A stretch of 64,000 nucleotides of DNA from a virus, in IMG/VR virus record IMGVR_UViG_3300003323_000541, positions 35,902-99,901 of that record; one strand, 5' to 3'. The translations under genes and the position numbers were made by a program. Each line of letters opens with the position of its first letter. Within the stretch, counting starts at the first letter, position 1. This document shows positions 2,430 to 64,000 of this stretch, one piece after another. Below the pieces are notes generated by a model, which was not told where the DNA came from, did no database searches, and saw nothing but the letters and a program-made list of their open reading frames with translations.

Positions 2430-2472
2430 TACATGTTTAAGGGACTTTTTGTTTTTAACACAATTTAAAATA

Positions 2473-11157: not shown

Positions 11158-11161
11158 TAAA

Positions 11162-11189
11162 CGAAACCTTTTAACTAAATTTTCGTTAA
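11162..11189 (+). promoter_or_regulatory. ECF-sigma-type promoter candidate
   Basis: CGAAAC-N16-CGTTAA in the intergenic gap before 11199/11399. Confidence 0.55.
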
Positions 11190-11198
11190 GTGAGAGTT

Positions 11199-11408
11199 AT
11201 GAGAATTAATTTATTTAACAGAAGATTTTATTTAGGTAAAAATATAGGCGATTATACTAAACCTGGAAAGCATATCATGTTTAGAACTTGGTCAGATACT
11301 TCTCCAGTGTTTACAGTATATCAAGATAACTACACAGATTTATTGAAATATTTTTGGAAAGTTCTGAAATATAAAATAAATACAAAATACTATAGTATAT
11401 GTCTGTAA
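11199..11408 (+). CDS. Small hypothetical protein (ATG 11199 preferred over GTG 11190)
   Basis: Fills the gap between cargo genes and overlaps the next start. Confidence 0.45.
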   Translation: MRINLFNRRFYLGKNIGDYTKPGKHIMFRTWSDTSPVFTVYQDNYTDLLKYFWKVLKYKINTKYYSICL

Positions 11409-34602: not shown

Positions 34603-35109
34603 TTAATCATCATTCCATTCGATATAAAGATCATCATCTTCATCGTACCCAATCCCATCATCTAAACCGTCTACTATATCTGTACGAGATGTCCAATCAC
34701 TAAGAATCAGTCCATATTCATCTTTCTTTTGAGCATTAAACACCTGTGATTCTTGATTCTCATTACCGACATAGAAAACTCTTTTGTGGATAACATTACA
34801 ATATGAAGATCTGAAATTAGGTATTTCTCCGAACAAGTTGTTGTATATTATGTTCGAGACTTCTTCTAAGGTACATGTAGGATAATAATATCTGCATATC
34901 AGAAATGTATCACCTATGCTTCTTCTTCGACCTGGTTCGGTCTGTTCACTTCCATTTGCTACATAAATAGTGGATTTTGTGTCATTGAAATCAGTGAAGA
35001 ACTTTATAATGAACTCCTTTAGGGTCTCTTTCCTTTTTTTCAAGACACCTTTTAATCTTAAAGGAGATTGTCCATTAATTATATCTGTTTGTATTTTAGT
35101 ATAGTTCAT
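34603..35109 (-). CDS. Hypothetical protein, RS.GD..YYYP family paralogue 1
   Basis: RRRSIGDTFLICRYYYP..SYCNVIHKRVF shared with 55069..55641. Confidence 0.7.
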   Translation of the reverse strand: MNYTKIQTDIINGQSPLRLKGVLKKRKETLKEFIIKFFTDFNDTKSTIYVANGSEQTEPGRRRSIGDTFLICRYYYPTCTLEEVSNIIYNNLFGEIPNFRSSYCNVIHKRVFYVGNENQESQVFNAQKKDEYGLILSDWTSRTDIVDGLDDGIGYDEDDDLYIEWNDD

Positions 35110-40262: not shown

Positions 40263-41408
40263 TTATTCGTACTTACTATACAAAAACGGATTACCTTCGA
40301 ATTCTTCTAATTTAGGTAATTCTTCAAAGAATCCAGTTTCACCATCCATAGCCATAGACAGATTTACACCTGTTTCTGTGTCTCTGGAGGCAAGAATATG
40401 GAGCGATCGATATCTTTTACCTAGCTTGGTGAGATCGTAGCCCAAATGGCTCTCTAAATGCGGGAAAAGGGTAGGATTGAACAATCCCAATACAAGGGAT
40501 GCATCCTCACCCATATTTCCAGTATCTTTGAAATCTTCCATTGTTGGCTGTAAATCCTCACCGCTAAACTTTAATCTATCGATTTTACCTAATCCTCTGT
40601 TAAACTGAGATACTACAATAGGAGTAAATCTACAGATATTACGAAAGAATACGAAGTATTCACTCATCTTATCTATATTTGCTTTCTTATCATATCCATT
40701 CTCTTTTCTCATTAAACCAACGTGATCAAGAATAATAATGGTATAGAGATTAGGATTATTTTCCTTATAGCCGATTATTCTTTGTTTTTCGACTTTCCTT
40801 CCATTATCATCCATAACCATGTATGGCTCATAGATAAATTGCCCATTCTGCTCAGCATACCTCATTAAATATTTATAGATTCCTGTAGGATTATCTTTCT
40901 CCTCAATAAAATCTATTCTACCTCTTCTTGTACACCGACCATATTGGTCATAAACTCCGAACAAATCTGATAATTCATTTTTGTAGATATCTTCAACTAA
41001 TGAAAGATGTTTAGGATCAAGTTTGTTTTCACCTCTGGAGAGAATGTAATTAGCTGAGCATTGTATTCCATGCTTTATTCTCATGAAGTAAGCACAGAAT
41101 TTAGCCATCTTAGCTAATCTATCAATCTCATATGAAAAATATATCCAATTAATTGGTCTATATTTATTTTCCATATAAGGGGATATAACATACCTGTAGT
41201 CGATAAATGCTGTTTTACCAGTTTTTTGCATAGCTCCTACTACCTCGTACCTAGCTTTTTGTATATTACATACAAATTGATCTAACCTAGGTAATCCTCC
41301 TCTGATTCCTTCGTTTTTACCCTCTAATCCATTGTTTACTTCTTCTAAGAAATCCTTCATCTTAAATACTCCTTTCTGATTGTTTCTTTTCTTTACCACC
41401 CTCACCAT
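40263..41408 (-). CDS. dnaB: Replicative DnaB-like helicase (start may be MKDFL at 41360)
   Basis: KTGKT Walker A, YFSYE, ILDH, SQFNR, DFKDTG..EDA motifs. Confidence 0.88.
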   Translation of the reverse strand: MVRVVKKRNNQKGVFKMKDFLEEVNNGLEGKNEGIRGGLPRLDQFVCNIQKARYEVVGAMQKTGKTAFIDYRYVISPYMENKYRPINWIYFSYEIDRLAKMAKFCAYFMRIKHGIQCSANYILSRGENKLDPKHLSLVEDIYKNELSDLFGVYDQYGRCTRRGRIDFIEEKDNPTGIYKYLMRYAEQNGQFIYEPYMVMDDNGRKVEKQRIIGYKENNPNLYTIIILDHVGLMRKENGYDKKANIDKMSEYFVFFRNICRFTPIVVSQFNRGLGKIDRLKFSGEDLQPTMEDFKDTGNMGEDASLVLGLFNPTLFPHLESHLGYDLTKLGKRYRSLHILASRDTETGVNLSMAMDGETGFFEELPKLEEFEGNPFLYSKYE

Positions 41409-41955
41409 TTAAGGCTGCTTCACAATAACCTGCAAGCACGGACGATCCATCTTTTTCGATGAAATATGGAGCTAATTTGATGTATTCATAATTCTTAGAT
41501 CTCAATTCATTAATATAATTCTTTGTGGCTTGAATTATTATTCCTTGGGTAAATTGTGGATAATTTGTCATAAACTTCTTTAACTTCTTTTCACAACCCT
41601 TAGGGTCTGTTTTGACATAATATCCTCCGGATTTAACACCTGCTGGAAATAAATTCATCCATTCTCCTACGAAGGAGCTAAACGACTTTTCATTTTCATT
41701 TGTTTCAGATTTAACATGATTTTTAAATTTATCGGTTACATATATCTTATTCAGATATGCTTCTCCCGAACTGTTGAAGTTTAATAGGAAGCCTCTCTCC
41801 ACTAAGCTCTCCAATCTTTCTGGATTAATTGATCCAAATTTACCTAAATAGTTTTTAATTCTACTTCGGTCATTTAAATAGATCAATTCCATAAAGATGA
41901 AGTCCTCAAAGGAGAGAGACTCCTTTAAACAAAAATCAATTACGTCTATTATCAT
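41362..41955 (-). CDS. Putative replication initiator/helicase loader-like protein
   Basis: wHTH-like N-terminus; FP..ATKNYI..YFIEK..S.LA C-terminus; directly upstream of the helicase. Confidence 0.5.
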   Translation of the reverse strand: MIIDVIDFCLKESLSFEDFIFMELIYLNDRSRIKNYLGKFGSINPERLESLVERGFLLNFNSSGEAYLNKIYVTDKFKNHVKSETNENEKSFSSFVGEWMNLFPAGVKSGGYYVKTDPKGCEKKLKKFMTNYPQFTQGIIIQATKNYINELRSKNYEYIKLAPYFIEKDGSSVLAGYCEAALNGEGGKEKKQSERSI

Positions 41956-42185
41956 AATACATTCTGATATATCAATTTAGAATCTTCTTCTTCTATTGAT
42001 ATAATATAGTCCTGGAGTATTTGATAAGCTTGATATTGATTGATATGAACATTGAATTTATCTTTCAGGATATCTACTATCTTTTCAAGATCAAAAGGAT
42101 CAAGATTATATTCTTTGATAGCAACATCTATATATATCCTTAAAGCTAATGGATTAATCCATCGGGACTTTGTCAAGCTCTGCAT
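41952..42185 (-). CDS. Hypothetical protein
   Basis: Overlapping start/stop coupling. Confidence 0.5.
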   Translation of the reverse strand: MQSLTKSRWINPLALRIYIDVAIKEYNLDPFDLEKIVDILKDKFNVHINQYQAYQILQDYIISIEEEDSKLIYQNVL

Positions 42186-43608
42186 GATAGTCGCAATAGC
42201 GTTTGATAAGTTTATTAAAGAACTCTGCGGTAAACGGTCCGTAAGTTACTTTATCCAACTTAATATTAGCTTCTTTTCTTCTGTTAGCCACATCTGATGC
42301 TTTCTTAAACTTACGATATCGGCTTACACTCCATAATGTGGGATCAAATTTATCGTGTTCAGCTTTATTTGAAGCTAATCTTATGGCTCTTTGTTTGTTA
42401 TCACTAAATTGATTCTCGATATACTTTTCAGTACCAATATTAGTTTCCACATATGCACATTTCTGCATGATCATGAACTCTGCTACATATCCAACTACAC
42501 CAACTTTCGATGGAGAAGAAGATAATATAACACGAACACACCATACAGGAACCGACTTATACTGCTTCCAATCAGCGTAATTAGTCGAAAGGAGTTCAAT
42601 AGCATCTCCTTTTTTTATGTTGCATACAGGTCTATCAGAATCAGTTAAGCTATCATAGAGGAACATTTGATCACCGGGAAGAATCCATACACTTCCTTGT
42701 TCAGGATAGATTATCTGTCCATTCTCTGATTTTGTAATATAATCAGAGAAGCCTGATACATTTCTATTCCCTATTCTGGAATTTAAACTGTTACTTTCAC
42801 GATTACCTCCTCTATTTTTCTTTCTGTTCTTTCTTAAGTACCTTTCATAGCGATTGTTCTCATCATTATCATCATCGGAATCACTATAAGAATCTTGAAA
42901 TATTTTACTTTTCCATTGTTCTTCGCTTAACAGATCTAGATCGGAATTATCACCAGATGGCCATCCATAATCCTTTCTTGTCCTGTCAGGTTTGTTAACA
43001 AAACATGCATTTGAAAAGTAATATTCATTGTACTTTTGCCATGTACCAAACAAAGATGTACCTTTATCAAAGGGGAACATCACTATCACTCTATTGGAAG
43101 CATTTACATCCTTCATTATCTTAATGAACAGGACTGTATCCTCAATCAATAAATTACGAAGGTGCTTTTGTGAGTAATATTGTCTTGCTACGTGGTATGT
43201 ATCAGAAAATGCAGAGTGTGTTACATTATAATGATATGAACCGAATACACCATTATGCATCATAACAGGATGATCACGGACAATCGCATCATTTTGGATC
43301 ACCTGATTATGATCATCAGCTAAGATAAAAGGATGTGAATTATCAGAGGTCACATCTCCGGATGTTCCCATACGAAGATGGACAGCAACCTCATCTGTTT
43401 CATTGATTTCCTTTTCTTTAAGATAACTGATCATTTCCTCAGGGGTGAATAATCCTTTATGAACAATTAATCCGGGAGAGCCATCAATTTCTCTTTTAAT
43501 AATAACGCCCATTCCATCATTATTGTTCTTGTAGGAATGAATTATATTATCATAAAAGACTTCTGAATCTACTTGTACGTTATGTGGTTTATATATTATT
43601 AAGCACAT
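42154..43608 (-). CDS. Class II (Ntn) glutamine amidotransferase with C-terminal extension
   Basis: N-terminal MC, N.DG.G, HLRMGTSG, HPF, HNG, SDT. Confidence 0.85.
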   Translation of the reverse strand: MCLIIYKPHNVQVDSEVFYDNIIHSYKNNNDGMGVIIKREIDGSPGLIVHKGLFTPEEMISYLKEKEINETDEVAVHLRMGTSGDVTSDNSHPFILADDHNQVIQNDAIVRDHPVMMHNGVFGSYHYNVTHSAFSDTYHVARQYYSQKHLRNLLIEDTVLFIKIMKDVNASNRVIVMFPFDKGTSLFGTWQKYNEYYFSNACFVNKPDRTRKDYGWPSGDNSDLDLLSEEQWKSKIFQDSYSDSDDDNDENNRYERYLRKNRKKNRGGNRESNSLNSRIGNRNVSGFSDYITKSENGQIIYPEQGSVWILPGDQMFLYDSLTDSDRPVCNIKKGDAIELLSTNYADWKQYKSVPVWCVRVILSSSPSKVGVVGYVAEFMIMQKCAYVETNIGTEKYIENQFSDNKQRAIRLASNKAEHDKFDPTLWSVSRYRKFKKASDVANRRKEANIKLDKVTYGPFTAEFFNKLIKRYCDYHAELDKVPMD

Positions 43609-43612
43609 TTAT

Positions 43613-45463
43613 TTAAATGGTTAAAAGATCTTTGAAACTGTTGGTGAACCTTCCTTTTCTATTTGCTTCTGAGGTATATTCTTTATCCTCAATCTGAGCA
43701 TTTACATCAGGATCTGCAGGCGAATATTTTTCTTTTTGAGAATTGATATAATTTATTAGTGAATCTCCTTTCCTTCTATAGGAGAAGCGAATTACATCTT
43801 CAATTGTAATCTTCTTTGAAAGAAGGATTTTAACTGAATTATTCTCAACATAGTTAACAAACGCCATACAGAAAAGAATCCAGTTCTTTATCTTGCGATA
43901 GTCCATGGTGGCCTGGTGATTCCTGAATTCTATTGTAAATGCTTTACTGATAGATTCCCTGAAGTTCTGTCCTTTTACTCCTGCAAAATAATGATTAGCA
44001 TTATTTCTTGCAAAGTTACATGGAACAAGATTCAACCATACATACCTTGCTTTAGGATATTGATGAGAGTGCGGAGCAAATTTATTATTATATTTGTTCA
44101 CATTAGCGTCTCCTCCTCTGGATGAACCATCTAAAAGCCATTGATAGATCTCTTCATAGATTTCATCAACAACATCTTTAAGAACATCCGGACTAAGATT
44201 GTTTTCAGTCAATCTCATCTTTTTAATCGAATGAAGTGTAGGAATCTTCCCACATGAGCTACTCATACCCTTGTTAAGATAGTACTCATTTCTTGTATTT
44301 AAACGAGATATAGGCATCATAGAGAATATCTCGTCCTGTAGTCTTAGACCAAGAACATAAGCTGCTACAGTGAAGGTTTTGTTAAACTTAGCACTTCCTA
44401 TGTGAACATGTAGACCACATTTATGATCTACGTTACATTGACGAGCTATATAACCACTTAATGTGGCTAACTGCTTAAATCCACCATCACCTCTTAGTAC
44501 CCCTGAGACATATTCCTTACCTGTAATGGACCCATCATGGCAAGATTTAGCATTTAAATTAAACAAGGCAAAGTCAGGAATATACCCGCTGCTTGTTTCA
44601 ATTTCAACACCAAAAGTATATGGAAGATTCTCCGATACATTGAAACTTCTAGGAGATGAACCAAGCTCAAAATTCCTGTTGATAGCAATCTTATTGGTTT
44701 CACTAAAGGGCACCTTACGAATTACATTCCACTGTGTTCCCTCTTTAGGACCATATCCATAATTCTCTTTAATATAAAGAGTTTCTATAGAGGGTAAAGC
44801 GTACACTCCTGCTTGATAATGATAAACCAATAGACCCTGTTCGCAATATCGCTCAAGGAGATTTATATCAAAGAAATAATCGACCTTTCCTCTCTTCAAA
44901 ATTACAGGTATACCGCTATTCTTTGAACAATAGACGAAGCTTATCTCCTTCTTTAGCTCAAAATCGTATTCAACGATGAGCTTTTTCAACAGTCCTATTG
45001 ACCTTTCATTGCCATCATTTTGGTCGATTTCTTTAGGTGAATTTACTGAATCGAACGCCTTATAGCGCATCTTATTACCTTCATTAACAGCAGGCTCAAA
45101 TTCACTTCCAGGGAAGGTTATGCGTATAGCATTTCCATCCGCGAATACCATCATATATGGATATCCTCCGTAAATTTCGTCTTGGTCAAAGTCTAAACTA
45201 ATCGGGTTACCATTATAATCCTTCTCCTGATTGAGAGCATCTGAAATAAAAAGACGCTCTGATATATCTGAATGAAAGGAAAAGATGGAGCTTGGAAGCG
45301 CCTTATTCTTAAAATGAACAAACTCCTTACCTGACTCATCAACCACAGATTGTTCAACAACAAATGGTCCAGGGGAGGGAAGATTATAAAAATCAACGAC
45401 ATCTGACCAATTCTCGATATATCTGTTAATTCTTATTATACTCCCTTCTTTGTATTTACTCAT
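43613..45463 (-). CDS. Putative amidoligase (GS/GCS-like COOH-NH2 ligase fold)
   Basis: TFGVEIE, DGSI..EYVS, CGLHVHIG, RY..LN, TIEFR. Confidence 0.85.
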   Translation of the reverse strand: MSKYKEGSIIRINRYIENWSDVVDFYNLPSPGPFVVEQSVVDESGKEFVHFKNKALPSSIFSFHSDISERLFISDALNQEKDYNGNPISLDFDQDEIYGGYPYMMVFADGNAIRITFPGSEFEPAVNEGNKMRYKAFDSVNSPKEIDQNDGNERSIGLLKKLIVEYDFELKKEISFVYCSKNSGIPVILKRGKVDYFFDINLLERYCEQGLLVYHYQAGVYALPSIETLYIKENYGYGPKEGTQWNVIRKVPFSETNKIAINRNFELGSSPRSFNVSENLPYTFGVEIETSSGYIPDFALFNLNAKSCHDGSITGKEYVSGVLRGDGGFKQLATLSGYIARQCNVDHKCGLHVHIGSAKFNKTFTVAAYVLGLRLQDEIFSMMPISRLNTRNEYYLNKGMSSSCGKIPTLHSIKKMRLTENNLSPDVLKDVVDEIYEEIYQWLLDGSSRGGDANVNKYNNKFAPHSHQYPKARYVWLNLVPCNFARNNANHYFAGVKGQNFRESISKAFTIEFRNHQATMDYRKIKNWILFCMAFVNYVENNSVKILLSKKITIEDVIRFSYRRKGDSLINYINSQKEKYSPADPDVNAQIEDKEYTSEANRKGRFTNSFKDLLTI

Positions 45464-47457
45464 ACTTTAGAAGTTGTATTAGATGTTTTAGTTTTTAATT
45501 CCGGAATACGAAGTTCGATAAAATCCGATACTTCGATAAAAAGCTTATTAAATAAATCCTGAACTTTCTTCTTACCACTAGGTGTATAAATTAAAGCAAG
45601 AGATTCATCATTAGCTTTTATCATTGTCCGCATTATATTTTCATATTCAGCAGAGGCAGAAGAAGAACCATCATCTCGATCTTCTAATACTTCATCCTCT
45701 TCTACTATTTCAACATGTATTTTCTCTCCATCTTCGGTGTGAATAACATGTGTATTTGAACCGGATTTATCCTCTGAAGAAAAGCTTACATACATGTTAG
45801 CCTTACTATTATCAACAGTAAATATTTGCTGAGGTTTTATAGTAGAGGGTATTTTATCTTCGTTATGCAATTTAGGCAGAAGATATAACTTATCACTAAA
45901 TAAATAGTAATTAGATACCACCCAAAATTCCATTCCAGCACCAGAGGAGAGTTTAACCTGTGTACCTTTATCGTGGACTATAGCATTAGCAACTAAGTCG
46001 TTAAAAATGATTTTAACATTTCTCTTACTTATATCACTAGTATGCATGTCCTTATGATAACTATCGATATTATCATATAACCAGTCAAAGGTCATGTAAA
46101 GCCATCCAGCTTCTTCCTGGTTGGTTGATCTTACATATTCTCTTGGTACACGATATCGGTAAATTATATTGGACTTCTCATCCTTATTATAAGCTTGCTG
46201 AATATCGATTATTCTGGTTACTATACAGGTATCAATATCCTGATAGGTTATAAGCACATATTCTCCTTTGGAAAAATACAATTCTCCTGTTACAAAGTCC
46301 TTGAAATCACGAGCAATTACAGCATCTTCCCAATTACTAATGGGAATATGACAATTGAACTTAGTTACGCTCATTTGCTCATAATTACCAGCTTCATTAC
46401 ACACAAGAATTTTATCTCCAGGTAATTGATCCAAGCCTTTGTTCACGAAGTAAAAAGTCCCCTTGATCCAAAGCTTTTTCATATTACCCCCAATATATTG
46501 GATTACATCCTGACCGGAGTATTCTAACCAACATCTTGATGGATATTTCTGCTTAAGATCTAACTGTTTACTAGCAGGGGTACTACCTGAATCTGAAATT
46601 GTGGAAATAGCAGGTGGGGTCATAGGAGATATGGTTTCCTGCTTATTATGCTCGCTGAAAAGCTCAGGTTGTCTTTTTGTAACACCAATCGTATGACTAC
46701 TTGAAGCAGAAGAAACTCCATAATGTCTTTCGTAGTATTCTTCTATAGACTCTGCATCATTATAGGCATATGCAGAAGAATTATATACTTTCATCTTAAC
46801 ATGAATAGGATTCATCTGTACATGACCATTCTGAATGGTATAGAAGTAATCATCAACGAATTCCTTGATATTACTACAACCTATTGCTTCTAGTCCTTCT
46901 CTGACTGAAGATATATAAATACCCTCTTCAGATTTACCACGAAACAGAGGTCTTTCTTTATGCTTATATACATAGAGATTTGATGGTGTCTCCTTATTTA
47001 CTGCAAGGATATTCGCGACACCTGAAAGCATGGGGATAACTGTTTTAGCTTTTTTGTATTTAGCAAAAAGCTTCCCTATAATCTCACTATCAACGTTTAT
47101 CTTTGAATATTGGATATTATCATCCTTTTCATCTCTACATATTTCCCATACATTATCTATCTTCCCGTTGTGAGCAAACACAAGATTACCCTCCTCAAAA
47201 GGATGAGCATTCTCTTTAGTTTTAGCCCCAGTTGTAGCTGCTCGGGTGTGTCCGATAAATATGGAATCCGGAATCAAAGAAAGAGTTGGAAGCATCTTAA
47301 CAGCTACTTTACCAGCTTCTTTTATTAATCCATTATTTGGTGTCCACAAACCAGAGGAATCTGTTCCCCGGTCTTGGTTATAAATCATTAAAAGCTTTAA
47401 TTTATAAGGATCATATACCTTATCCTTAAAGCAACTGACTCCTATTAGTCCACACAT
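45460..47457 (-). CDS. Class II (Ntn) glutamine amidotransferase with long C-terminal extension
   Basis: MCGLIG, RGTDSSG, GHTRAAT, NAHPF, HNG, VDSE, RPL. Confidence 0.88.
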   Translation of the reverse strand: MCGLIGVSCFKDKVYDPYKLKLLMIYNQDRGTDSSGLWTPNNGLIKEAGKVAVKMLPTLSLIPDSIFIGHTRAATTGAKTKENAHPFEEGNLVFAHNGKIDNVWEICRDEKDDNIQYSKINVDSEIIGKLFAKYKKAKTVIPMLSGVANILAVNKETPSNLYVYKHKERPLFRGKSEEGIYISSVREGLEAIGCSNIKEFVDDYFYTIQNGHVQMNPIHVKMKVYNSSAYAYNDAESIEEYYERHYGVSSASSSHTIGVTKRQPELFSEHNKQETISPMTPPAISTISDSGSTPASKQLDLKQKYPSRCWLEYSGQDVIQYIGGNMKKLWIKGTFYFVNKGLDQLPGDKILVCNEAGNYEQMSVTKFNCHIPISNWEDAVIARDFKDFVTGELYFSKGEYVLITYQDIDTCIVTRIIDIQQAYNKDEKSNIIYRYRVPREYVRSTNQEEAGWLYMTFDWLYDNIDSYHKDMHTSDISKRNVKIIFNDLVANAIVHDKGTQVKLSSGAGMEFWVVSNYYLFSDKLYLLPKLHNEDKIPSTIKPQQIFTVDNSKANMYVSFSSEDKSGSNTHVIHTEDGEKIHVEIVEEDEVLEDRDDGSSSASAEYENIMRTMIKANDESLALIYTPSGKKKVQDLFNKLFIEVSDFIELRIPELKTKTSNTTSKV

Positions 47458-47882
47458 TCGATTTGTGGTTTAATTGTTTGTTTTATTTTGTCTAATTTTG
47501 GATCATTCCAATCCCCCGATAATACTAAGGACAGTGGATCAATCTCTTTTCCATACACCCAAAATGCCCCACAATACCTTTCAGAGGTCACATAAATGGG
47601 ATCAAATCCAAGTAATTGCATAAAGAAATTAAGCTCACTGTATACGTCCTTATCCATCTCCAGAACATCCACGATAATTGTATCGTTGTAGGAATTTGTT
47701 TGGACACATTGAGAATATGCACCATTATGAAACATGAGGAATCCTCTTATAGTGTAGTCGTTATCAACTACTTTGACAAACTCATCATATTTCTGCTTCA
47801 ATTCAAGATAATGCTCTTGGTTATATCGAAACAAACTATCTACAAAGACAAGAATCGTCTGTTGCTTATCTAAGTCCCTCAT
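47445..47882 (-). CDS. Hypothetical protein in ligase cluster
   Basis: Overlaps both neighbours, coupled within the operon. Confidence 0.55.
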   Translation of the reverse strand: MRDLDKQQTILVFVDSLFRYNQEHYLELKQKYDEFVKVVDNDYTIRGFLMFHNGAYSQCVQTNSYNDTIIVDVLEMDKDVYSELNFFMQLLGFDPIYVTSERYCGAFWVYGKEIDPLSLVLSGDWNDPKLDKIKQTIKPQIECVD

Positions 47883-48720
47883 ATTTTCTCATGAGCATTT
47901 TAGGTATTTCCTGGATATATCTCTGAGCAGTAACTTCACCAAAAGAAGGAGCAGAGTTTACCTCAACCACTATGAATTCAGGATTCTCTCTCTTTCTTCC
48001 ATGTCCATCAACACTGCTTTGTACCCTTAAATCAACAGCACAAAAATCCAATCCCACTGATGAGCAAGCCTTTACACATTCTGAAACTATCTGTTCCCAG
48101 TTTACAGGTTTGTCAAAAGAAGCATTATCTTCCAATATCCATACACAGGTACTATCATTTCTGATAAATCTCTTATCCTCCGGTGTATCTCTTTGAAGCA
48201 TCTTCCTACATGTATAGAAGCATCCCTCAGAGTTAACATGCAAACGATATTCACGATTGTATGAATAGTATTTCTCGAATATATAATTGGAAGTAGTCTT
48301 ACCAGCTAACCAATTATCGAATTCCTGCTTTGAATTAAGTAATGATAGTCCTCTACCTCTTGAACCAAAGCGGTTCTTAGCTACTATAGGGAAGGGTAAT
48401 TCACTAATATTAATAAGCTCTTCGGTGATTCCATTCTTCATTTGATCATTCCCGGAGAAAGTCCACCAAAGGGCCGTTTTAACGTTAGCTCCAAAGCATT
48501 TCTTCATTCGAAGCTTATCCGAACTATTCTTTACTGCTTCTGGACTATTAAGCTCAATTCGTCCGTCATTAATTTCTGTAGTTGAACCAAGACGAACCAC
48601 ACTTCTAAAAGGCATTCTTTGCAGAGCCCCTCTTAGGATATTATGCGATGGATGCCGGCTTCTTATTTGAGGTCTGAACCTTGTCGAGACTTTTTTTAAT
48701 ATTTTCAATTGAGTTACCAT
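47866..48720 (-). CDS. ATP-grasp ligase (RimK-like)
   Basis: NSSDK, FPIVAK..GSRGRG, EYRLHV, LDFCAVD, EVNSAPS. Confidence 0.85.
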   Translation of the reverse strand: MVTQLKILKKVSTRFRPQIRSRHPSHNILRGALQRMPFRSVVRLGSTTEINDGRIELNSPEAVKNSSDKLRMKKCFGANVKTALWWTFSGNDQMKNGITEELINISELPFPIVAKNRFGSRGRGLSLLNSKQEFDNWLAGKTTSNYIFEKYYSYNREYRLHVNSEGCFYTCRKMLQRDTPEDKRFIRNDSTCVWILEDNASFDKPVNWEQIVSECVKACSSVGLDFCAVDLRVQSSVDGHGRKRENPEFIVVEVNSAPSFGEVTAQRYIQEIPKMLMRKYEGLR

Positions 48721-49450
48721 GTTGATTAAAATATGATACTATACCTGAGTTACCATGAAGATTTTCCCATTGAAAAGGACTTTTTTTTTCTGAGGGATCT
48801 TCTTCAAGATATTCTTTCCATGTTTGAGAAATGTCTCCTCCATTGATTAAATAAATATAGAAAGGGACATGCTCTTTTCGCATTGATTTATATATATCTT
48901 CAGAACTACATACTGTTTTACTGTCTAAATTAGTAAATGAATTGAGATAACTCTCAATATCATCCTTACAGTTATAGTTCATACCTATGCGAATAAGTAA
49001 GCCATAGAAGCTAACGAAAACAGGTTTATCTAACCATTTAATATCTGATTTAAACACAACACCTTTTGGTCCTTTTTCTGTACATTTAGCACGTATAGCC
49101 TCTGTTCTTTGAAAGCCTCTGCTATCCTCAAATTTATGCAATAATGAAAGAACTCCATTAAGCATTTCATCTGATATACTATAGTTACATGCTGGTCTTT
49201 CCACAACAGCAAGGTTGAATGTATCACCTACGAATAAAAGATTTGTCTTCTCACTTGTAAATCCGTAGATAGTACGTGAAATCCCATCAATCTCTGTTGC
49301 TACAAATTCTTGAAGATAGTCTTTACATATTATAGGAACATGTAATCCTTGATAATGCTGAGAAAGCATACACATCTGTATCTTCGGAGACAGAGTTTGA
49401 ACTAAACCTGAAGTCTTACTAAAATCTAAATTAATTTCTACTTCTTCCAT
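48641..49450 (-). CDS. Hypothetical protein in ligase cluster
   Basis: 269 aa with CKDYLQE and HGNSGI motifs. Confidence 0.6.
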   Translation of the reverse strand: MEEVEINLDFSKTSGLVQTLSPKIQMCMLSQHYQGLHVPIICKDYLQEFVATEIDGISRTIYGFTSEKTNLLFVGDTFNLAVVERPACNYSISDEMLNGVLSLLHKFEDSRGFQRTEAIRAKCTEKGPKGVVFKSDIKWLDKPVFVSFYGLLIRIGMNYNCKDDIESYLNSFTNLDSKTVCSSEDIYKSMRKEHVPFYIYLINGGDISQTWKEYLEEDPSEKKSPFQWENLHGNSGIVSYFNQHGNSIENIKKSLDKVQTSNKKPASIA

Positions 49451-49452
49451 AA

Positions 49453-50202
49453 TTAAATATCAAACATTTCACTTGCTAACGCATCAAAGAACCCACATTC
49501 GAATTCTTCAGGATGAAATTGAGCAAGTAGGATATTATTCTGTTCATTTTTCATTAGTTCAACACACACAGGAACATCTTCCAATGCATCTATTGCTGAA
49601 CTATTCTTTCTTTTCTGGAACCACGTCTTTGTCTGAATATTCTCATTAGATAAAGAAGGACATCCAGTGTAGACTCTACTCCAACCAAGGACAGTAAATC
49701 CAGGAGCAACATCTTTAACAGCCTGATGATGGTAAGAATTGATCTTTACACTCGCCGCATTTGATTTCATTGCCTGATTACTATATATAGTTTGCATCTC
49801 TTGGGAAGTACTTCCTCTTGATAATTTAGGATCTTGTATATGACCTGCAACATGCTGGTATAAGCTACCACCTAATAAAACATTGATAACTTGCATACCT
49901 CTGCAGATACCAATAGTAGGCTTCTGATCTTCGAGCCAAGCTTTCAACAAGTTATTATCAAGATATTCATAGAAAGGATTAGCTCTTCCATTAAACACAG
50001 AAGGAATATCCCCTGTGATAGAGGGAGAAACGTCTAATCCTCCGGGAACAAGCAGGATATCAATTTGATCTTTAACCTTATTAAGATCATCCCATGGGGT
50101 AATTAACCTAACATGAGCCCTTCTGCTTATCCAGTCAATATATGCTGCATTTTGGGTTATCTTACCCTCAAAGCTATCAGCATAAACACCAATTGTTTTC
50201 AT
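49453..50202 (-). CDS. Class I glutamine amidotransferase / peptidase C26
   Basis: PGG.DV.P, GICRGMQ, NSYHHQ, QFHPE triad. Confidence 0.88.
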   Translation of the reverse strand: MKTIGVYADSFEGKITQNAAYIDWISRRAHVRLITPWDDLNKVKDQIDILLVPGGLDVSPSITGDIPSVFNGRANPFYEYLDNNLLKAWLEDQKPTIGICRGMQVINVLLGGSLYQHVAGHIQDPKLSRGSTSQEMQTIYSNQAMKSNAASVKINSYHHQAVKDVAPGFTVLGWSRVYTGCPSLSNENIQTKTWFQKRKNSSAIDALEDVPVCVELMKNEQNNILLAQFHPEEFECGFFDALASEMFDI

Positions 50203-50218
50203 TTAATTCTTTTATAGG

Positions 50219-51331
50219 TTAATAAACCAATTCAGGAACGGTGATTGCGTATTTTTCACAAAGAACTCTTGCTGCATCTTTATCATCTTTTTCAATAACA
50301 GATACTGCTTCTTCATATTGTTCCTTAGTAAACTCTTCATTGTTGACAGAGTCTATTGCTCTGATTGTAGAATCCCATGCCCAACCAATGAGCTCATTGT
50401 TCATGATCCAGAAATTGGATAAGGTTCTGTATTCTACTCCATAAGGTTTCATGCGAAAGCTTCCAGGAGCCCCATACATGGCTCTACGACGATTATCTTT
50501 GTCCATTAGTAGTGAAGGTATACCTAAGAAGATATCCATGCGTCTAACGAGCTCTAATGAAGTCTTATCATTAGGATCTTTATATCCTATGTGAATATGC
50601 ATTTTGTTATCGTTGAGCTTTTTATCTCAACTTCTAGAATCTTCTGTATAAATTCTAGTTCGGCGTACATTTTCTCCTCCAACTTAATGGTAAGGAGCAG
50701 AACACTCTTGGGGATATTATATTCTCTTATTAGAGGTTCAATCCCTACGCTCTACGGTACTAATCCCTATTATGAGACCTAGTTACCACGGTATTTAAGT
50801 AATTTTGCAATTTCGTTTTTCAAAAGAAAAACTAACAGTCTTATTCACCGTATTTGCTCTGTTCAAATTTAGCATTTCTGCTAAAAAGGGCCATTATTGT
50901 CGACCACCAGTAGTCCGTAAGTTACCTCTTGCATCAGGAGGAGCAATCATACTCATAGTATGAGCAGAGAACTCAGCCATACAGCCAAAGGTACGATTAA
51001 ATTTGTTATTGAGATACTTCTTCTCAAATTCTGCAGAAGCTTTAGATGAAAGGGAAAGTTCAGCAGGTATGGTCTTACGAAGATATTCCATAACAAAATT
51101 AATTTCTTCTGCAAACTGCTCTTTATTTTGACAAGGAGGAATACAGAATTCTGCAGCAACATTGTCTTTTAAGATAAAATGACCTTTATCGCTAATAGGA
51201 TGAGGGTCCCATTTATCCCCGGGAATAATTCCCAATGAAGGAATAAATTCCTCTTTCTCGTCGTTGATTCTTACCAGAAATACCTCAGGATCTGCTCCTA
51301 ATGTTACATTTTCAATTGATAGTTTAGACAT
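50219..51331 (-). CDS. phiEco32-like COOH-NH2 ligase type 2, two exons (51331-50903 and 50599-50219; 269 aa spliced)
   Basis: LGADPEVF, DNV..EF, FGC, spliced LRTTGG|HIHIG, RR.MYG.PG.FR.KPYGVEYRTLSNFW. Confidence 0.88.
50600..50902 (-). ncRNA. Group I self-splicing intron (303 nt, no homing endonuclease)
   Basis: Exon ends in U paired with G in P1; terminal G; P3, P4 and P7 pairings; removal restores the frame and the GGHIH motif. Confidence 0.88.
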
Positions 51332-51338
51332 ACTTAAT

Positions 51339-52496
51339 TTATTTACGGTTTGTAACTTTAAAATGTTTTCTTAATGATTTATCGTCAATACATACAATTC
51401 CTTTTTCGGATTTTATTTCAAATTTATAGCTACCTTTTATGATAATTCCTCCAGATCCTGTTCTTGGAACCCTCACTTTAACAGCATAAGGTACATTTGA
51501 ATTAAATTTACCTCTGTATCTTTGATGGTCCTTACAGATTACTTCAGTTATTCTCTCTCTGTTGTATCTGGGTGGTTTTGGGATTATCAAAAGAAGATCG
51601 CTTGACTTTAAATTAGTCAAATCCAGCTTATATGAAGCTTCAAGATCTTCCAATGCAAATCTTGTATGAACTGAGGATTCGTTTACAGGAGCATGGACAT
51701 TTGCCACGACTCTATTTTTACCGTCTTTTCTGCATGTTATTACTTCATAAGTAGCTTGTAGTCCTTCTGTTATAGGTGAACCCTGTATTTTATCAACCAA
51801 AAGGGACTTTAGCTTCTTATTACCAAACAACTCTACAGACTTGGTATAACTCACTGGTCTAACACGCTCTCTTGACCAATGATATGTTTCCTTTATCGAT
51901 GAAATAGGAACCTCAAGGTTTCCAGATTCAAACGCAATACAAGTTAAATGAAGCTTATTAGGAATAAATGAAACCTTGAATTTTTCAATTTCTAATAATT
52001 CTTCTTCCACCTTAACTATTTTATTGATACATAAATTATGATGGTAGGAATTGAGGTTAAATGAACTAGGTAATCTCTGTTTAACCCATGTATACATTTT
52101 CTCTTCTGTATCATTAGGTACAGCTACCACAAATACATAACTATCGATATCCAGGTTATGCACCTTAACTCCCTCACTTAAATAAGGACTTAAAGAGTCA
52201 AAATAAGCTTCTTTTGTATCAGCTGCACATTCACCTAAGCTGGTAAAATAATTACTTATAGAAAGAAATTCTCTACTGGTCGTAGATAAAGTTAAAACTT
52301 TACCTTTGGCTTCCTTTTTATTGATTATATGACCTAAATAACTAAAGAAGAAGTATTTACAACCAGTTCCGGGCATTGGAGCTGAGGTAACGAAATAATG
52401 GTCAAATCCAATACCTTCGTAAGCTAGTCCTTTTACAATCGAACCCGGTATAATCTTATAGACCACATTACCATTTACTAGTTCTGTTGCTTTCAT
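51339..52496 (-). CDS. Hypothetical protein
   Basis: 385-aa ORF between the polymerase and the ligase cluster. Confidence 0.6.
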   Translation of the reverse strand: MKATELVNGNVVYKIIPGSIVKGLAYEGIGFDHYFVTSAPMPGTGCKYFFFSYLGHIINKKEAKGKVLTLSTTSREFLSISNYFTSLGECAADTKEAYFDSLSPYLSEGVKVHNLDIDSYVFVVAVPNDTEEKMYTWVKQRLPSSFNLNSYHHNLCINKIVKVEEELLEIEKFKVSFIPNKLHLTCIAFESGNLEVPISSIKETYHWSRERVRPVSYTKSVELFGNKKLKSLLVDKIQGSPITEGLQATYEVITCRKDGKNRVVANVHAPVNESSVHTRFALEDLEASYKLDLTNLKSSDLLLIIPKPPRYNRERITEVICKDHQRYRGKFNSNVPYAVKVRVPRTGSGGIIIKGSYKFEIKSEKGIVCIDDKSLRKHFKVTNRK

Positions 52497-54564
52497 TATG
52501 TTCTATCGTTTTAATAATTTTGTTGCATTCATTAATATAGTAGTCATAATTTATGTCATAATCTTTCATTGATTTCTGTTCATATTTATTGAAAACTGTA
52601 CATAGCCAACCTGCTTCGATATTTGTTTCCCTATCCTTTGGTTTAAGTGTATGGTCCTCTACCATAGAAAATATATCTAATTGATTTGGAGAGGTTGCTC
52701 TTAATTTACTCAATTGATCTATCTTTTTAGCAAGTGGAGGTAATACTTTTATTAAACTCACTCCTTTATTTGAAACATAATATCTTGTTGTTTTTGATAA
52801 ATTAGTTTCTGCTACACCATCTTTGTTTATTATTCTGGTGATAAGTGTATTTTCTCCAGTTAATTTACAGAGTTTACAGAATTCATATATATCAGTACAT
52901 TCTTCAATAGTTTTTTCTACAGGTGTACCCTCAAGGAAATATTTTTGAATTGAATAGGGAACTATTCTCATCGAATGATTTTTATGCACTTCCTTATCAC
53001 TCTCAAAATCTCCTTTTAGTTTTACTTCTCCATTAGGCTTTATAGCCATATAGTCATTCACTGAGGTCTGTATTAGCTTAGAATACTCAGCATATTCCAA
53101 CTTACCCATTTGATTATTTCCGACTTTGTTCTCCCAGTTTGAACATATCTGGTAATACAGGTCTGATAGGGATTTGTCAAATAGACATACAATACCATCT
53201 GTATTAGCACTTACAACATGGATATTATTAAGTTCCATGTCTTCTATCAACATTAATATCTCAAATTGATTACCAATTGTACAACTAAAGTGAGACACTG
53301 GAGAATATTGCCAATTTGATGATTCATTTGTTTTTCCAAAGCCACCACCATTCAATGCTAATTTATATACTTCTTCTTTAGATTTTTCTTTAACTTCCTT
53401 TGTAGATTTAAAAGTCTGCTTAGCAAGATCTTTCTTCTCAATGTTTGAAGTATAACCTATCAACCATTCTTCTCCAAGATGTTTAGGAAACAATCTGCGC
53501 TTCTTAATAGCATTGGGGTATTGTGAACCAACATCAGCATCTCTGAGATATTGATTTTCATTTGGAATTATCATCCTGGGTCCTTCACATGAATGTATAC
53601 CACCTTTGGCTATTGTATACTCAGTACCTCTGAATGTGATTTGAAATACCTGACTATCATCATCCTTATTCTTCTTTAAATCTACAGGGGCTACTCTTAC
53701 ATGGTCATAAAATTTTTGAAGTTCTGGGGTCTTAAAGGAAACATAATCAGGAATACAATCTCCAAATGTGAATGGATATACAACAGGAGTTCTCTCTTTG
53801 ATTTCTTTAAAAGATAATCCTGTGTTCTTCATGTAGGTTCTCTTGTTAATTTCATCACCAATTTTTACATCATTGAAATTAACGCAATTAATACCTAATT
53901 CAATTTGTATATCCCTCCTTAGTTGTAATTTATTCTTACCCTTATAGAAGTCTAATTTGTGGTTTGGTATATACTTAGATAGTGTATCGGTATCACCTAT
54001 TGTTAACAAGTATAGCAAATAAGTTGCTAATACATCATGATTATTATAAGAAAGAATAGTATGAATCTCTTCATTATCATAAATCTTTTTACTATGGTGA
54101 ATGGGCATGTCCTCAATATTACCCATTCTAAGAACAAATTCTATGGCCTTTAAGGACATTTTCTTTTGTTTGTTATCAAAATGCCATATTTTGTACAAGT
54201 CTATCTGAAAGATCGATAATCTCCATTCTGGTATAGGAGCCCAACCTGTTTCCCTTGATGTATTAATCACCCAATTTGATATTCTGTATATTTCCTGAGC
54301 TCTGGCTTCACTGCTTAGTTTTAATAGCTTATTTTGTTCTAGTAATATAGTTTCTATCACTTGTCCATCATATGCTATATTATTGAAACCAATAAAGACG
54401 ATCTTGTCCTTTATACATTTATTTAAAAAGTTAATGTAAGAGATAAAATCATCTCTTTCTTTATGTATGACAAATTCTAGCTTTTCTTCCGAATATGGAT
54501 CTCTGAATATAGCTGAATGAAAATTAGCCATACATTCAATATCGTAAATGTAGAATTTTTTCAT
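52468..54564 (-). CDS. polB: Family B DNA polymerase (crAss-type) with 3'-5' exonuclease domain
   Basis: YDIE, GFNNIAYD, YNNHDV; DADVGSQYP, KLALNG..GK, SANTDG, KG motifs. Confidence 0.92.
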   Translation of the reverse strand: MKKFYIYDIECMANFHSAIFRDPYSEEKLEFVIHKERDDFISYINFLNKCIKDKIVFIGFNNIAYDGQVIETILLEQNKLLKLSSEARAQEIYRISNWVINTSRETGWAPIPEWRLSIFQIDLYKIWHFDNKQKKMSLKAIEFVLRMGNIEDMPIHHSKKIYDNEEIHTILSYNNHDVLATYLLYLLTIGDTDTLSKYIPNHKLDFYKGKNKLQLRRDIQIELGINCVNFNDVKIGDEINKRTYMKNTGLSFKEIKERTPVVYPFTFGDCIPDYVSFKTPELQKFYDHVRVAPVDLKKNKDDDSQVFQITFRGTEYTIAKGGIHSCEGPRMIIPNENQYLRDADVGSQYPNAIKKRRLFPKHLGEEWLIGYTSNIEKKDLAKQTFKSTKEVKEKSKEEVYKLALNGGGFGKTNESSNWQYSPVSHFSCTIGNQFEILMLIEDMELNNIHVVSANTDGIVCLFDKSLSDLYYQICSNWENKVGNNQMGKLEYAEYSKLIQTSVNDYMAIKPNGEVKLKGDFESDKEVHKNHSMRIVPYSIQKYFLEGTPVEKTIEECTDIYEFCKLCKLTGENTLITRIINKDGVAETNLSKTTRYYVSNKGVSLIKVLPPLAKKIDQLSKLRATSPNQLDIFSMVEDHTLKPKDRETNIEAGWLCTVFNKYEQKSMKDYDINYDYYINECNKIIKTIEHNESNRTSKW

Positions 54565-55068: not shown

Positions 55069-55641
55069 CTACCCTTGCAAGACGGTGAGCGCTGGAGCTA
55101 CCTCAGTAGCTTGTTTGTCTTCTGTATATTCGGGTAAATCTTCAACATCATGCCACCAATAATTCCACAGAATACCAAATTCATCTATACCAAAATTAGT
55201 GTCTTTTGAATCTGAACGAACACCATGATGAGTATTCCATCCAGCTTTAGTGCTTTGGAATTGAAATACCCTTTTTTTGATATTAGGACAGAATATAGAA
55301 CAAATAGGATCTGCACTATAACCACTTTCAGGATAGAACTTAGTGCTAAAGATAAGTTGTTTTAATGTCTTTAAAGAAGTATCCGGATAATAATACTTAC
55401 AAACAAGAAATATATCACCTAATGATCTGTTCTTCCTTCCATCGCATTGATGGGTCTCATCTTTAGCATATACCGTGGTATAGTTACGAAAATATTCTTT
55501 AAGTAATTTTGCAAGGAACTTGTCCAATGGCTGATCACTTTCTTTCTTAAAAGGAGGGATTTCTTCGCTAATCCGTTTTCCAATTTTAAGAAGACCTGTA
55601 TTGGCTAGTAATTCTTTTTCTATCTCTCGATAATGTTTCAT
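55069..55641 (-). CDS. Hypothetical protein, RS.GD..YYYP family paralogue 2
   Basis: KNRSLGDIFLVCKYYYP..IFCPNIKKRVF. Confidence 0.7.
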   Translation of the reverse strand: MKHYREIEKELLANTGLLKIGKRISEEIPPFKKESDQPLDKFLAKLLKEYFRNYTTVYAKDETHQCDGRKNRSLGDIFLVCKYYYPDTSLKTLKQLIFSTKFYPESGYSADPICSIFCPNIKKRVFQFQSTKAGWNTHHGVRSDSKDTNFGIDEFGILWNYWWHDVEDLPEYTEDKQATEVAPALTVLQG

Positions 55642-56300
55642 GTTTTATACTTCTTAATAAGTTTGTTTAAATATGTATGCAGACGATCGTTATCAGTCAT
55701 TTCAGGGTGTCCCTGGATACACAGAGCATTAATATTAGGATAATGTATAATTTCCGGTTCCAGAAATCCTTCTGGTATATTCATTGAATGATCGTTACCA
55801 TCAAGATATTTACCAGTTGATCTTTGGAAAGTGGACCAAGCTATTAGTTCGTGCTTAGTTCCTTTAGGATAACACATCTGATGGTGTCTTGACGGTATTA
55901 CATACTTCTCTTCTTGATTGGTAGTTATCCAATGTCCATTACCTTTCAACACATGACCCTCTACATGCTGGATAAGCTTACCACCTGAAAGAACAGTCAT
56001 TAACTGTGCTCCTCTGCATATTCCTATGATAAATTTACCTTTGGAATATTTATCGAAGATGTCAAGTTCATATCTGTCTCTAAGTGGTGATGTATAGGTA
56101 TAGGAACCTTCTTTTTCACCATACAGAGCTGGACATATATCTTCTCCTCCAGGAAATAGTAGGATATCAGCTTTCTCAGGATTCCTTACCCTTTCAACCC
56201 CTTCTATCCAGTTACTATAATGTCTATAGTAATGTTGGAAAGGAGTTACGATATGTATTTTCATTTTTTTCGTTTTGAAAGAATTTTTGAGCCAACACAT
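55638..56300 (-). CDS. Class I glutamine amidotransferase / peptidase C26 paralogue
   Basis: PGGEDI.P, GICRGAQ, SRHHQM, QGHPE; true start probably slightly downstream (MKIHIV). Confidence 0.88.
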   Translation of the reverse strand: MCWLKNSFKTKKMKIHIVTPFQHYYRHYSNWIEGVERVRNPEKADILLFPGGEDICPALYGEKEGSYTYTSPLRDRYELDIFDKYSKGKFIIGICRGAQLMTVLSGGKLIQHVEGHVLKGNGHWITTNQEEKYVIPSRHHQMCYPKGTKHELIAWSTFQRSTGKYLDGNDHSMNIPEGFLEPEIIHYPNINALCIQGHPEMTDNDRLHTYLNKLIKKYKT

Positions 56301-57969: not shown

Positions 57970-58011
57970 TGTTTCAATTTATAATGTTAAAGTACTTTGT
58001 CCTCTTCATAG

Positions 58012-58084
58012 TACCCAGGAGTGGAATTGAACCACTGACCGCGAAGGTATAAGCTTCACATTCTAACCACTGAACTACCTGGGT
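58012..58084 (-). tRNA. tRNA-Ile(UAU)
   Basis: ACCCAGG/CCTGGGT acceptor, TGAAG-CTTATAC-CTTCG anticodon arm, AGTGG-TTCAATT-CCACT T arm; no encoded CCA. Confidence 0.9.
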
Positions 58085-58094: not shown

Positions 58095-58712
58095 TTATAG
58101 ATGAATATAATCGCGTATAAGGCTATTTAAATAATAATGCAGAGAATGGTCAACTACCATCTCCGGATGTCCCTGAATACCTAATGCTTTTATTTTAGGG
58201 TAATATACTATCTCAGATTCAGCAAATCCCTTGGGAAGAGAGATTTCTTCATTATCACCATTCAAATATGTGGTAGATCTGGAAGGAGAGGCTGCAGCAA
58301 TTAGTTCATGTTCCACATCAAAAGGATAGTGCATCTGATGATGTGTAGAGGTCATCTTATAGTCCTTGTTGGTTCTAAGGTCTACTATTTGATGGGTCAT
58401 CCCATGATTGTTCACATGTTGTATTAATTTACCTCCAGCCATTACAGTCAGGAACTGAGAGCCTCTGCATATTCCCAATTTAAATGTATCAGGAAATGCA
58501 TCAAAATACACCTTTTCTCTCTTATCCCGTTCGATATTTGAATAGGTTCTATTTCCCTTTTTTTCACCATAATAAGATGGATCTACATCCTCTCCTCCTG
58601 TGAATAGGATGATATCTGCTTCTTCTGCTCTATTGATTAATTCTTTGTCGTATATCCAATTAGCATAAAAAGTAGATCCTCCAACAACATAAACCTTTAA
58701 TTTATTGTTCAT
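58095..58712 (-). CDS. Class I glutamine amidotransferase / peptidase C26 paralogue
   Basis: TGGEDVDP, GICRGSQ, STHHQM, QGHPE. Confidence 0.88.
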   Translation of the reverse strand: MNNKLKVYVVGGSTFYANWIYDKELINRAEEADIILFTGGEDVDPSYYGEKKGNRTYSNIERDKREKVYFDAFPDTFKLGICRGSQFLTVMAGGKLIQHVNNHGMTHQIVDLRTNKDYKMTSTHHQMHYPFDVEHELIAAASPSRSTTYLNGDNEEISLPKGFAESEIVYYPKIKALGIQGHPEMVVDHSLHYYLNSLIRDYIHL

Positions 58713-63943: not shown

Positions 63944-64000
63944 TACCCCAGACGGGAATCGAACCCGTGCGCCTGTGAGGGCACAGGATTTTAAGTCCTG
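63944..64000 (-). tRNA. tRNA-Leu(UAA), 5' part outside the window
   Basis: CAGGA-CTTAAAA-TCCTG anticodon arm, long variable arm, ACGGG-TTCGATT-CCCGT T arm, CTGGGGT-A acceptor 3' strand. Confidence 0.85.

Follow-up and report, generated by a model that had tools for sequence, protein, structure and literature searches.

What would a virus assemble with a run of ATP-dependent ligases, glutamine amidotransferases (GATases) and a peptidase of the gamma-glutamyl hydrolase type, packed between its genes for a DNA polymerase and a helicase? This question is raised by positions 42154-51331 of the window examined here, a stretch of 64,000 nucleotides (nt) that corresponds to bases 35902-99901 of the 99,901-bp virus record IMGVR_UViG_3300003323_000541, which has direct terminal repeats. 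The interval is filled by nine minus-strand open reading frames (ORFs), equivalent to eight genes since the first ligase is in two pieces. In order of transcription they encode a COOH-NH2 ligase type 2 (lig2), a Peptidase C26, an orphan protein of 269 residues, an ATP-grasp ligase, a protein of 145 residues resembling gamma-glutamyl cyclotransferases (GGCTs), a class II GATase (GATase-II), an Amidoligase_2 and a second GATase-II (GAT2b). We conclude that this locus is a copy, intact and enlarged, of the amidoligase cassette of phiEco32-type phages, reportedly predicted in 2009 in Mol Biosyst by Iyer, Abhiman, Burroughs and Aravind; it adds details to that cassette rather than a new kind of system. 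In the reading that we prefer, its enzymes would build and trim glutamate-type amide bonds.

Enzymes of the cassette and their co-conservation

A first-pass annotation of this DNA had proposed that eight tightly coupled genes occupy the interval and that their enzyme families can be recognised with intact catalytic motifs. Both claims held in Pfam, PHROG and hidden Markov model (HMM) searches, and in catalytic-residue alignments with 21-47 relatives drawn from IMG/VR loci. The ORFs are present, and consecutive genes are spaced by -80 to +16 nt from p385, the gene behind the family B DNA polymerase (PolB), through to DnaB, the exception being a 303-nt interruption of the first ligase. First, the Peptidase C26 (49453-50202, on the minus strand like all features below unless noted), a class I GATase-type gamma-glutamyl hydrolase by its family match (PF07722, E 1e-28), has a conserved triad of Cys100, His230 and Glu232, and its nearest solved relatives are Lin1909, the gamma-glutamyl-GABA hydrolase PuuD and a probable GATase. 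Second, the GATase-II (45460-47457), a Cys2 enzyme of the N-terminal nucleophile (Ntn) class with 665 residues, begins with MCG and matches GATase_6 over residues 1-230 (PF13522, E 6e-16, 59 bits), with Cys2, Arg72, Asn97-Gly98 and Asp123 conserved; a lineage-specific tail of 430 residues follows. Third, the Amidoligase_2 (43613-45463), a glutamine synthetase (GS)-like protein of 616 residues whose start overlaps the GATase-II stop by 4 nt (ATGA), has its catalytic part at residues ~270-585 (PF12224, E 1e-9, 38.8 bits against a cut-off of 22), behind a lineage-specific N-terminal region of 270 residues. The residues of its GxExE/HxH/ExR signature (G285, E287, E289, H352, H354, E512 and R514) show no variation across 48 sequences. 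Fourth, GAT2b (42154-43608), an Ntn paralogue of 484 residues that begins with MCLII, is made up of an N-terminal part of 220 residues, a low-complexity linker and a C-terminal domain. It is recognised by a lineage HMM of paralogous Ntn GATases (E 1.5e-66) and by the GATase-II HMM (E 8e-18), with C2, R79, N119, G120 and D136 invariant or nearly so in 30 sequences; nothing in Pfam or PHROG scored above threshold (GATase_4, 12.4 bits against a cut-off of 23). The extra regions of the GATase-II, the amidoligase and GAT2b have no docking domain in common and no homologues in 122 loci, and sequence searches with the lig2 and Amidoligase_2 profiles returned no solved structures.

For the gene neighbourhood we gathered 80 IMG/VR loci with the amidoligase alignment and annotated them with purpose-built HMMs; 47 of them have at least 8 kb upstream. 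In 47/47 loci the gene immediately preceding the amidoligase encodes a GATase-II. Full cassettes are found in 29 of the 47 (with ATP-grasp in 29, lig2 in 28, GAT2b after the amidoligase in 24, C26 in 19 and GGCT in 18), and the GATase-II and amidoligase pair only in 18, usually just upstream of DnaB. A GGCT-like ORF occurs elsewhere in 11 of these 18 pair-only loci, often several kb off (~7 kb downstream of the amidoligase; L024, L035, L045, L048, L057 and others). The layout of the window, namely PolB, cassette, GAT2b, the small gene p197 and DnaB, recurs in ~24 loci. Among named phages, the Cellulophaga phage phi14:2 has the GGCT, ATP-grasp, COOH-NH2 ligase, GATase-II and amidoligase as consecutive genes g037-g041; cr108_1 has an ATP-grasp, two unannotated genes, a GATase-I, a ligase, a GATase-II and an amidoligase at gp028-gp034; and the Leptolyngbya cyanophage Lbo-JY46 (L003) has the same set, preceded by genes for phosphoribosyl pyrophosphate synthetase and a SNO-type GATase (1102-2752). 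A lack of co-conservation across phages had been named beforehand as a finding that would count against the first-pass proposal. It was not what we saw: judged by gene content and order, the cassette genes are co-conserved as a block in unrelated phages, the three just named and the 47 IMG/VR loci being our cases.

The interrupted ligase, the ATP-grasp ligase and the orphan family

The first-pass gene list was right about the eight genes, but one of its two unknowns, the second, appears to be a degenerate GGCT-like protein, the other belongs to a large uncatalogued family, and two copies of C26 lie outside the interval. A further detail concerns lig2, which comes in two pieces. The first, of 143 codons (50903-51331; ORF 50894-51331), matches phrog_3815 over positions 3-139 (E 7e-21) and ends in LRTTGG, with ACT GGT GGT closing at 50903; the second (50219-50599; ORF 50219-50602) starts HIHIGY, with CAT ATT CAC opening at 50599, and matches PF14395 (E 1e-10, 41.7 bits against a cut-off of 25) and phrog_3815 over positions 139-266 (E 7e-37). 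The intervening 303 nt (50600-50902) fall within the GG/HIH motif of the ligase. Joined across this point, the product (LRTTGG/HIHIGY) aligns end to end and free of gaps with the uninterrupted ligases of L004, cr108_1, Lbo-JY46 and phi14:2. The insert shows features of group I introns, namely a U preceding the 5' splice site, a G at the 3' end and restoration of the ligase frame upon excision, and it folds better than 100 of 100 shuffled versions (z -3.86). No Rfam family matched it, the Intron_gpI model being silent both at its gathering score and at E<=10. From these features we predict that the insert is probably a self-splicing intron, which we assign to no class.

Interruptions are also seen in other genes of this lineage. 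In several relatives (L050 at ~6000-6400, L052, L075 at 10001-11913, and L031) the amidoligase gene is cut in two by an ORF of 240-262 residues, and these ORFs form one family with a 278-residue ORF beside lig2 in L031. They look like homing endonucleases, carried by introns or inteins, that recur in cassette genes.

The ATP-grasp ligase (47866-48720; phrog_2599, E 4e-33) is 51% identical to g038 of phi14:2 and 41% to the protein of cr108_1, and its residues E157, R159, K173, D230 and E253 are conserved among relatives. Its AlphaFold2 model (mean predicted local distance difference test score, pLDDT, 93.9) found RimK (2.4e-10), Ddl (2.6e-10) and LysX (5.5e-10) in Foldseek, together with ArgX at an indistinguishable E-value of ~1e-10. 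On the model, the ATP-grasp fold is certain but the subfamily is not, because the E-values of RimK, Ddl and LysX/ArgX tie, and we therefore call the protein an ATP-grasp ligase of RimK/LysX/Ddl-like type. An assignment to the RimK family was considered and rejected, as the Pfam RimK model (PF08443) scored 18.7 bits, under its cut-off of 21, and the structural matches gave no preference for RimK over Ddl or LysX. The first 80 nt of the ORF coincide with the end of the orphan gene (48641-48720). Since the alignment with ATP-grasp homologues begins near residue 10, this overlap may be genuine.

The 145-residue protein (47445-47882) lies directly upstream of the GATase-II, the place at which relatives have a GGCT that Pfam recognises (in L004, PF06094, E 1e-20). 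Pfam and PHROG left it unmatched, a word-index homologue search returned only the query, and neither PF06094 nor any canonical GGCT was matched across the whole genome. However weakly, it resembles the GGCTs of L090 and L075 in BLAST (E ~1e-4), and it is the one ORF of the window touched by the lineage GGCT HMM, at 13 bits. Of the residues conserved in GGCTs it still has a Tyr and the SGDW motif at the C-terminus, but it has lost YG[ST]L as well as the glutamate of LD..E, which we take to be the catalytic Glu of human GGACT. Based on its slot, the weak homology and the lost signature motifs, this is probably a degenerate GGCT-like protein, either inactive or re-purposed.

The orphan (48641-49450) has no match in Pfam or PHROG. 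It is homologous to the gene beside C26 in L004 (E 6e-5), and a search with a four-sequence profile gave 1,975 representative clusters (at 50% identity) with E<=1e-3, 963 of them reaching 1e-10, with no Pfam domain among them. The conserved residues of the family are C42, K43, D44, W139, P143, S147, R154, G156, D185, H232 and G236. Its AlphaFold2 model is confident (pLDDT 89.6; predicted template modelling score 0.89). Foldseek found nothing in the PDB at E<=0.001, and an exhaustive structural aligner ranked PafA first (Z 6.5 over 178 residues, 4.0 Å), followed by Dop (6.2) and GshF (5.5), with glutamine synthetases at 5.4 and 5.1 and the GS and glutamate-cysteine ligase (GCL) families spanning 4.5-5.5, all of these Z-scores being below 8 and in a range which the aligner flags as common. 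The GS/GCL/PafA superfamily of carboxylate-amine ligases nonetheless takes 16 of the top 23 rows, and in a second structural search glutamine synthetases took all of the top 15. The conserved residues of the orphan family do not match the metal and ATP ligands (Glu, His and Arg) of the GS/GCL/PafA superfamily, and comparison of its profile with those of lig2 and the amidoligase by hhalign gave a probability below 1%. Thus, the model makes a GS/PafA-like fold without the metal ligands of a ligase possible, a lead that gains some credibility because the neighbouring ligases of the operon belong to the same superfamily.

With the orphan-family alignment we gathered 39 further IMG/VR loci, 33 of them non-identical. 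In 20 of the 33, lig2 is found no more than 5 kb from the orphan gene, which in most cases stands directly before it, and in another 10 an ATP-grasp gene is equally near (30/33 together). On some contigs of 150-527 kb, the size of jumbo phages, the orphan is followed by lig2 and a span of 8 kb around them holds no further cassette gene; loci with such a stand-alone pair fall among L084-L122 (e.g. L086, L101, L113 and L116). In BFVD, one of the two unannotated cassette proteins of cr108_1 weakly resembles the orphan structure (E 7e-3). It is tempting to speculate, and we do so only tentatively, that the orphan is a re-tooled GS/PafA-Dop fold whose metal ligands have given way to an invariant Cys-Lys-Asp motif and a conserved His, and that it is an obligate partner of lig2 or of the ATP-grasp ligase, acting either as a Dop-like enzyme that cleaves or transamidates amides or as a subunit that presents the substrate. 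If this were true, the orphan would be a fourth, previously unrecognised core component of the cassette, and together with its ligase it would make a two-gene module able to stand alone in jumbo phages.

A proposed chemistry of glutamate-type amide bonds and the alternatives to it

What, then, might these enzymes do together? We give a probability of roughly 0.55 to a cytoplasmic pathway in which a small amine or peptide would acquire glutamate-type amide bonds, gamma-glutamyl or carboxamide, and have them elaborated and trimmed. What we observed directly is the identity of the genes, the conservation of their catalytic residues and of the gene set, and the order of the genes; it is from these that we infer every chemical step and substrate of the pathway. 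Its enzymes would be soluble and cytoplasmic, transcribed with the replication genes; none of the cassette proteins has a hydrophobic segment of the membrane type, the maximum Kyte-Doolittle mean over 19 residues being 1.39. Gene order across loci suggests three modules, in each of which an ATP-dependent ligase would be partnered by a cyclotransferase or an enzyme with a Cys nucleophile. The first would consist of lig2 and Peptidase C26, plus the orphan where it is present; the second, of the ATP-grasp ligase and the GGCT-like protein, degenerate in this phage; and the third, of the Ntn GATase-II translationally coupled to the Amidoligase_2, followed in this lineage by GAT2b. By the chemistry of their families, the ligases would use ATP to activate a carboxylate as an acyl-phosphate, to which the amine would then be coupled, and the partner enzymes with a Cys nucleophile would either provide ammonia from glutamine for amidation or later remove the gamma-glutamyl group. 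As its target we prefer a cytoplasmic amine or peptide of small size and wide distribution, such as a polyamine-, amino-acid- or glutathione-like compound, with peptidoglycan and DNA ranking lower. We favour a gamma-glutamyl chemistry because ligases and cleaving enzymes of the same families are paired in PuuA/PuuD of putrescine utilisation, EgtA/EgtC of ergothioneine synthesis and BtrJ/BtrG of butirosin synthesis, and because the solved structures related to the C26 protein include PuuD itself.

Several points weigh against this pathway. First, no product, substrate or activity measured for any cassette member was found in the literature, where papers up to 2025 cite only the 2009 prediction for function and those of 2023-2025 give the function as unknown, just as the first-pass annotation had stated that no product was demonstrated. 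Second, family membership does not fix the substrate. Third, the GATase-II, the amidoligase and GAT2b all carry large lineage-specific domains that could attach to a macromolecule, and this would point to a protein or a nucleic acid as the target. Fourth, the ATP-grasp model resembles Ddl no more closely than it does RimK and LysX, whose substrates are protein C-termini. Finally, the GGCT-like protein has lost its signature residues, so that the module it forms with the ATP-grasp ligase may work differently here.

The first-pass annotation had offered glutamylation-type tagging, envelope remodelling and DNA modification as functions; the evidence singles out none of the three. The one that survives best is protein tagging or tailing, in which the ligases would attach glutamate or a short peptide to a protein of the phage or its host, after the manner of RimK on S6, LysX on LysW and PafA with Pup, and the C26, Ntn and GGCT enzymes would erase or process the tag. 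The resemblances to RimK/LysX and PafA/Dop make a protein target possible: RimK with its substrate RpsF and LysX/ArgX with LysW are among the top structural neighbours of the ATP-grasp protein, PafA and Dop are the best, if weak, structural matches of the orphan, and three of the enzymes have lineage-specific extra domains with which they could hold on to a macromolecule. However, Ddl scores like RimK for the ATP-grasp model, the Z of 6.5 between orphan and PafA falls within the range that the aligner calls common, the comparison of orphan and ligase profiles finds nothing, and no gene for a small, acidic-tailed carrier or tag like LysW was seen among the minus-strand ORFs at 33-60 kb. On balance, we consider tagging unlikely, yet it is the foremost of the alternatives.

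A role in the remodelling of peptidoglycan precursors, whereby carboxylates of the stem peptide would be amidated or extended to block superinfection, is said to have been proposed in the 2009 study and repeated in later genome papers. MurT/GatD is established proof that a ligase and a GATase can amidate the stem peptide, and the top structural matches of the ATP-grasp protein include a ligase of cell-wall synthesis, Ddl. In the later literature, the genes appear as an operon for gamma-glutamyl amide linkages and also as a 'peptidoglycan modification cassette' (PMC5498523; PMC10580990). Yet the pair of GATase-II and amidoligase has been reported in viruses assigned computationally to Poseidoniales archaea, which lack peptidoglycan (PMC11706807), an indirect argument that weakens the idea. 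In addition, phages bearing the cassette include those of Bacteroidota, Proteobacteria and cyanobacteria, whose stem peptides differ, and no Mur-ligase or cell-wall-binding domain was found in Pfam and PHROG scans of the cassette. We regard this role as improbable.

Hypermodification of DNA, with an amide-linked group put on a base or its nucleotide precursor, appears just as improbable: the cassette does lie between PolB and DnaB here and in ~24 relatives, and between primase and uracil-DNA glycosylase (UDG) in phi14:2 and cr108_1, and in some viral contigs genes for thymidine hypermodification are accompanied by amidoligase and GATase domains (PMC8989533), but the virion DNA of the cassette-bearing phage tf was cut by RsaI, HpaI, EcoRV, SmaI and HaeIII, cloned and Sanger-sequenced (PMC3517423), which is indirect evidence against the idea, the cassette genes and the neighbours scanned, a set smaller than the whole genome, include no family that modifies nucleotides or DNA, and a place in an early or replication module is typical of host-takeover genes too. 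That position, which the first-pass annotation had taken as a functional clue, is common to many unrelated phages bearing the cassette and may simply be inherited.

The host phage and comparison with known systems

The portal and the major head protein of the virus match phrog_6547 and phrog_11589, respectively. The latter matched 126 records, and among the matches listed there are crAss-like phages only, at 31-32% identity over 99% of the length, including cr85_1, PhiCrAssBcn, FpV4 and phi14:2. Because the head protein finds crAss-like phages, and both PolB and the ATP-grasp protein are nearest to phi14:2, we assign the virus, whose genome is complete at 99.9 kb, to the distant crAss-like phages on these protein matches. 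The DNA of the operon found no match, and so no near-identical DNA, in a megablast search of the phage collection. Upstream of the cassette lies PolB (52468-54564; phrog_1252, E 5.5e-125), whose nearest relatives are those of phi14:2, FpV4 and cr114_1, separated from lig2 by p385 (51339-52496), an orphan gene of 385 residues without a family match that ends 7 nt upstream of the ligase. Downstream, p77 and p197 stand between the cassette and the DnaB-like gene; p197 and DnaB (40263-41955; DnaB_C, E 2.5e-10) form a pair conserved in relatives, p197 being 33-41% identical to the gene ahead of DnaB in many loci. These matches uphold the first-pass placing of the cassette in a crAss-like phage, between PolB and DnaB. 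Two extra C26 paralogues lie upstream of PolB, at 55638-56300 (PF07722, E 1.7e-16) and 58095-58712 (PF07722, E 3e-16), and the system therefore reaches past 42154-51331. A scan of promoters and terminators gave counts at or under the shuffled expectation.

Other features of the window and of related phages are noted here in their own right. A tRNA-Ile gene with anticodon TAT sits between the two extra C26 genes (58011-58084, minus strand), and part of a second tRNA is found at the window edge (63944-64000, minus strand). The plus strand at 14291-28345 is a single ORF of 4,684 residues without a PHROG match, presumably the giant virion protein of crAss-type phages. A protein of 168 residues (34603-35109, minus strand) ends in a strongly acidic C-terminal tail, EDDDLYIEWNDD, which could be a tail of the single-stranded DNA-binding protein type. 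PolB is split in relatives as well: L066 (~1-3500) reads PolB378, an ORF of 107 residues and PolB273, and in phi14:2 (9642-12069) the PolB match falls in two pieces. Interrupted replication genes thus seem common in this lineage.

Of the phage gene sets whose enzymology is clear but for which no product is known, the cassette is one of the most widespread, and finding that product would be worthwhile, although the present copy offers no easier test of it because the phage is uncultured. What this copy and its relatives add is, first, that cassettes of the lineage located between PolB and DnaB are common in distant crAss-like phages; second, that the invariant core is the GATase-II and amidoligase pair, in that order, which also stands alone; third, that the GGCT can decay while the rest of the cassette persists; and fourth, that an unannotated orphan family of ~2,000 clusters travels with the ligases, which is the one lead worth following.

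How does the locus compare with systems already described? PuuA/PuuD, EgtA/EgtC and BtrJ/BtrG are alike in principle, as each is known to combine a ligase of GS/GCL or ATP-grasp fold with a C26, Ntn GATase-II or GGCT enzyme that removes the glutamyl group; they differ in that there is no orthology with the cassette at the sequence level, and in that the cassette is without oxidase, pyridoxal phosphate enzyme or carrier protein. The likeness is closer to the phiEco32-type cassette, which reportedly also occurs in LUZ24/PaP3/tf, RIO-1/PSA-HP1 and PA11/TC6. The first-pass annotation had drawn this link, and the same families, gene order and co-conservation support it: both have the PF14395 ligase, the PF12224 amidoligase with a class II GATase just upstream, an ATP-grasp, a GATase-I/C26 enzyme and a gene resembling GGCTs, if only weakly in the window, in packed and co-directional genes set among early or replication genes. 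The phages themselves differ, being a 100-kb crAss-like phage here and podoviruses of 45-77 kb there, and so do the additions made here, namely a second Ntn GATase after the amidoligase, three C26 copies, a degenerate GGCT-like protein, a 303-nt insert in the COOH-NH2 ligase and long lineage-specific extensions on three enzymes.

Among crAss-like phages, phi14:2 and cr108_1 share the gene set and the order of GATase-II followed by amidoligase, in cassettes that have already been annotated; these lie between primase and UDG and lack GAT2b, and their proteins other than the ATP-grasp are 26-37% identical to those of the window. In phi14:2, moreover, the GGCT is canonical and C26 is missing. Closest of all are L004, L005, L066 and ~20 further uncultured IMG/VR phages of 50-100 kb, which have the same layout of PolB, cassette, GAT2b, p197 and DnaB, with L005 nearest to the window (amidoligase 44% identical). 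In this group, unlike in the window, the ligase is uninterrupted, a canonical GGCT stands just upstream of the GATase-II and the intervening orphans are others. The copy in the window is marked by a ligase gene that is interrupted, a second Ntn paralogue, C26 in triplicate, a GGCT that has decayed and long extensions specific to the lineage.

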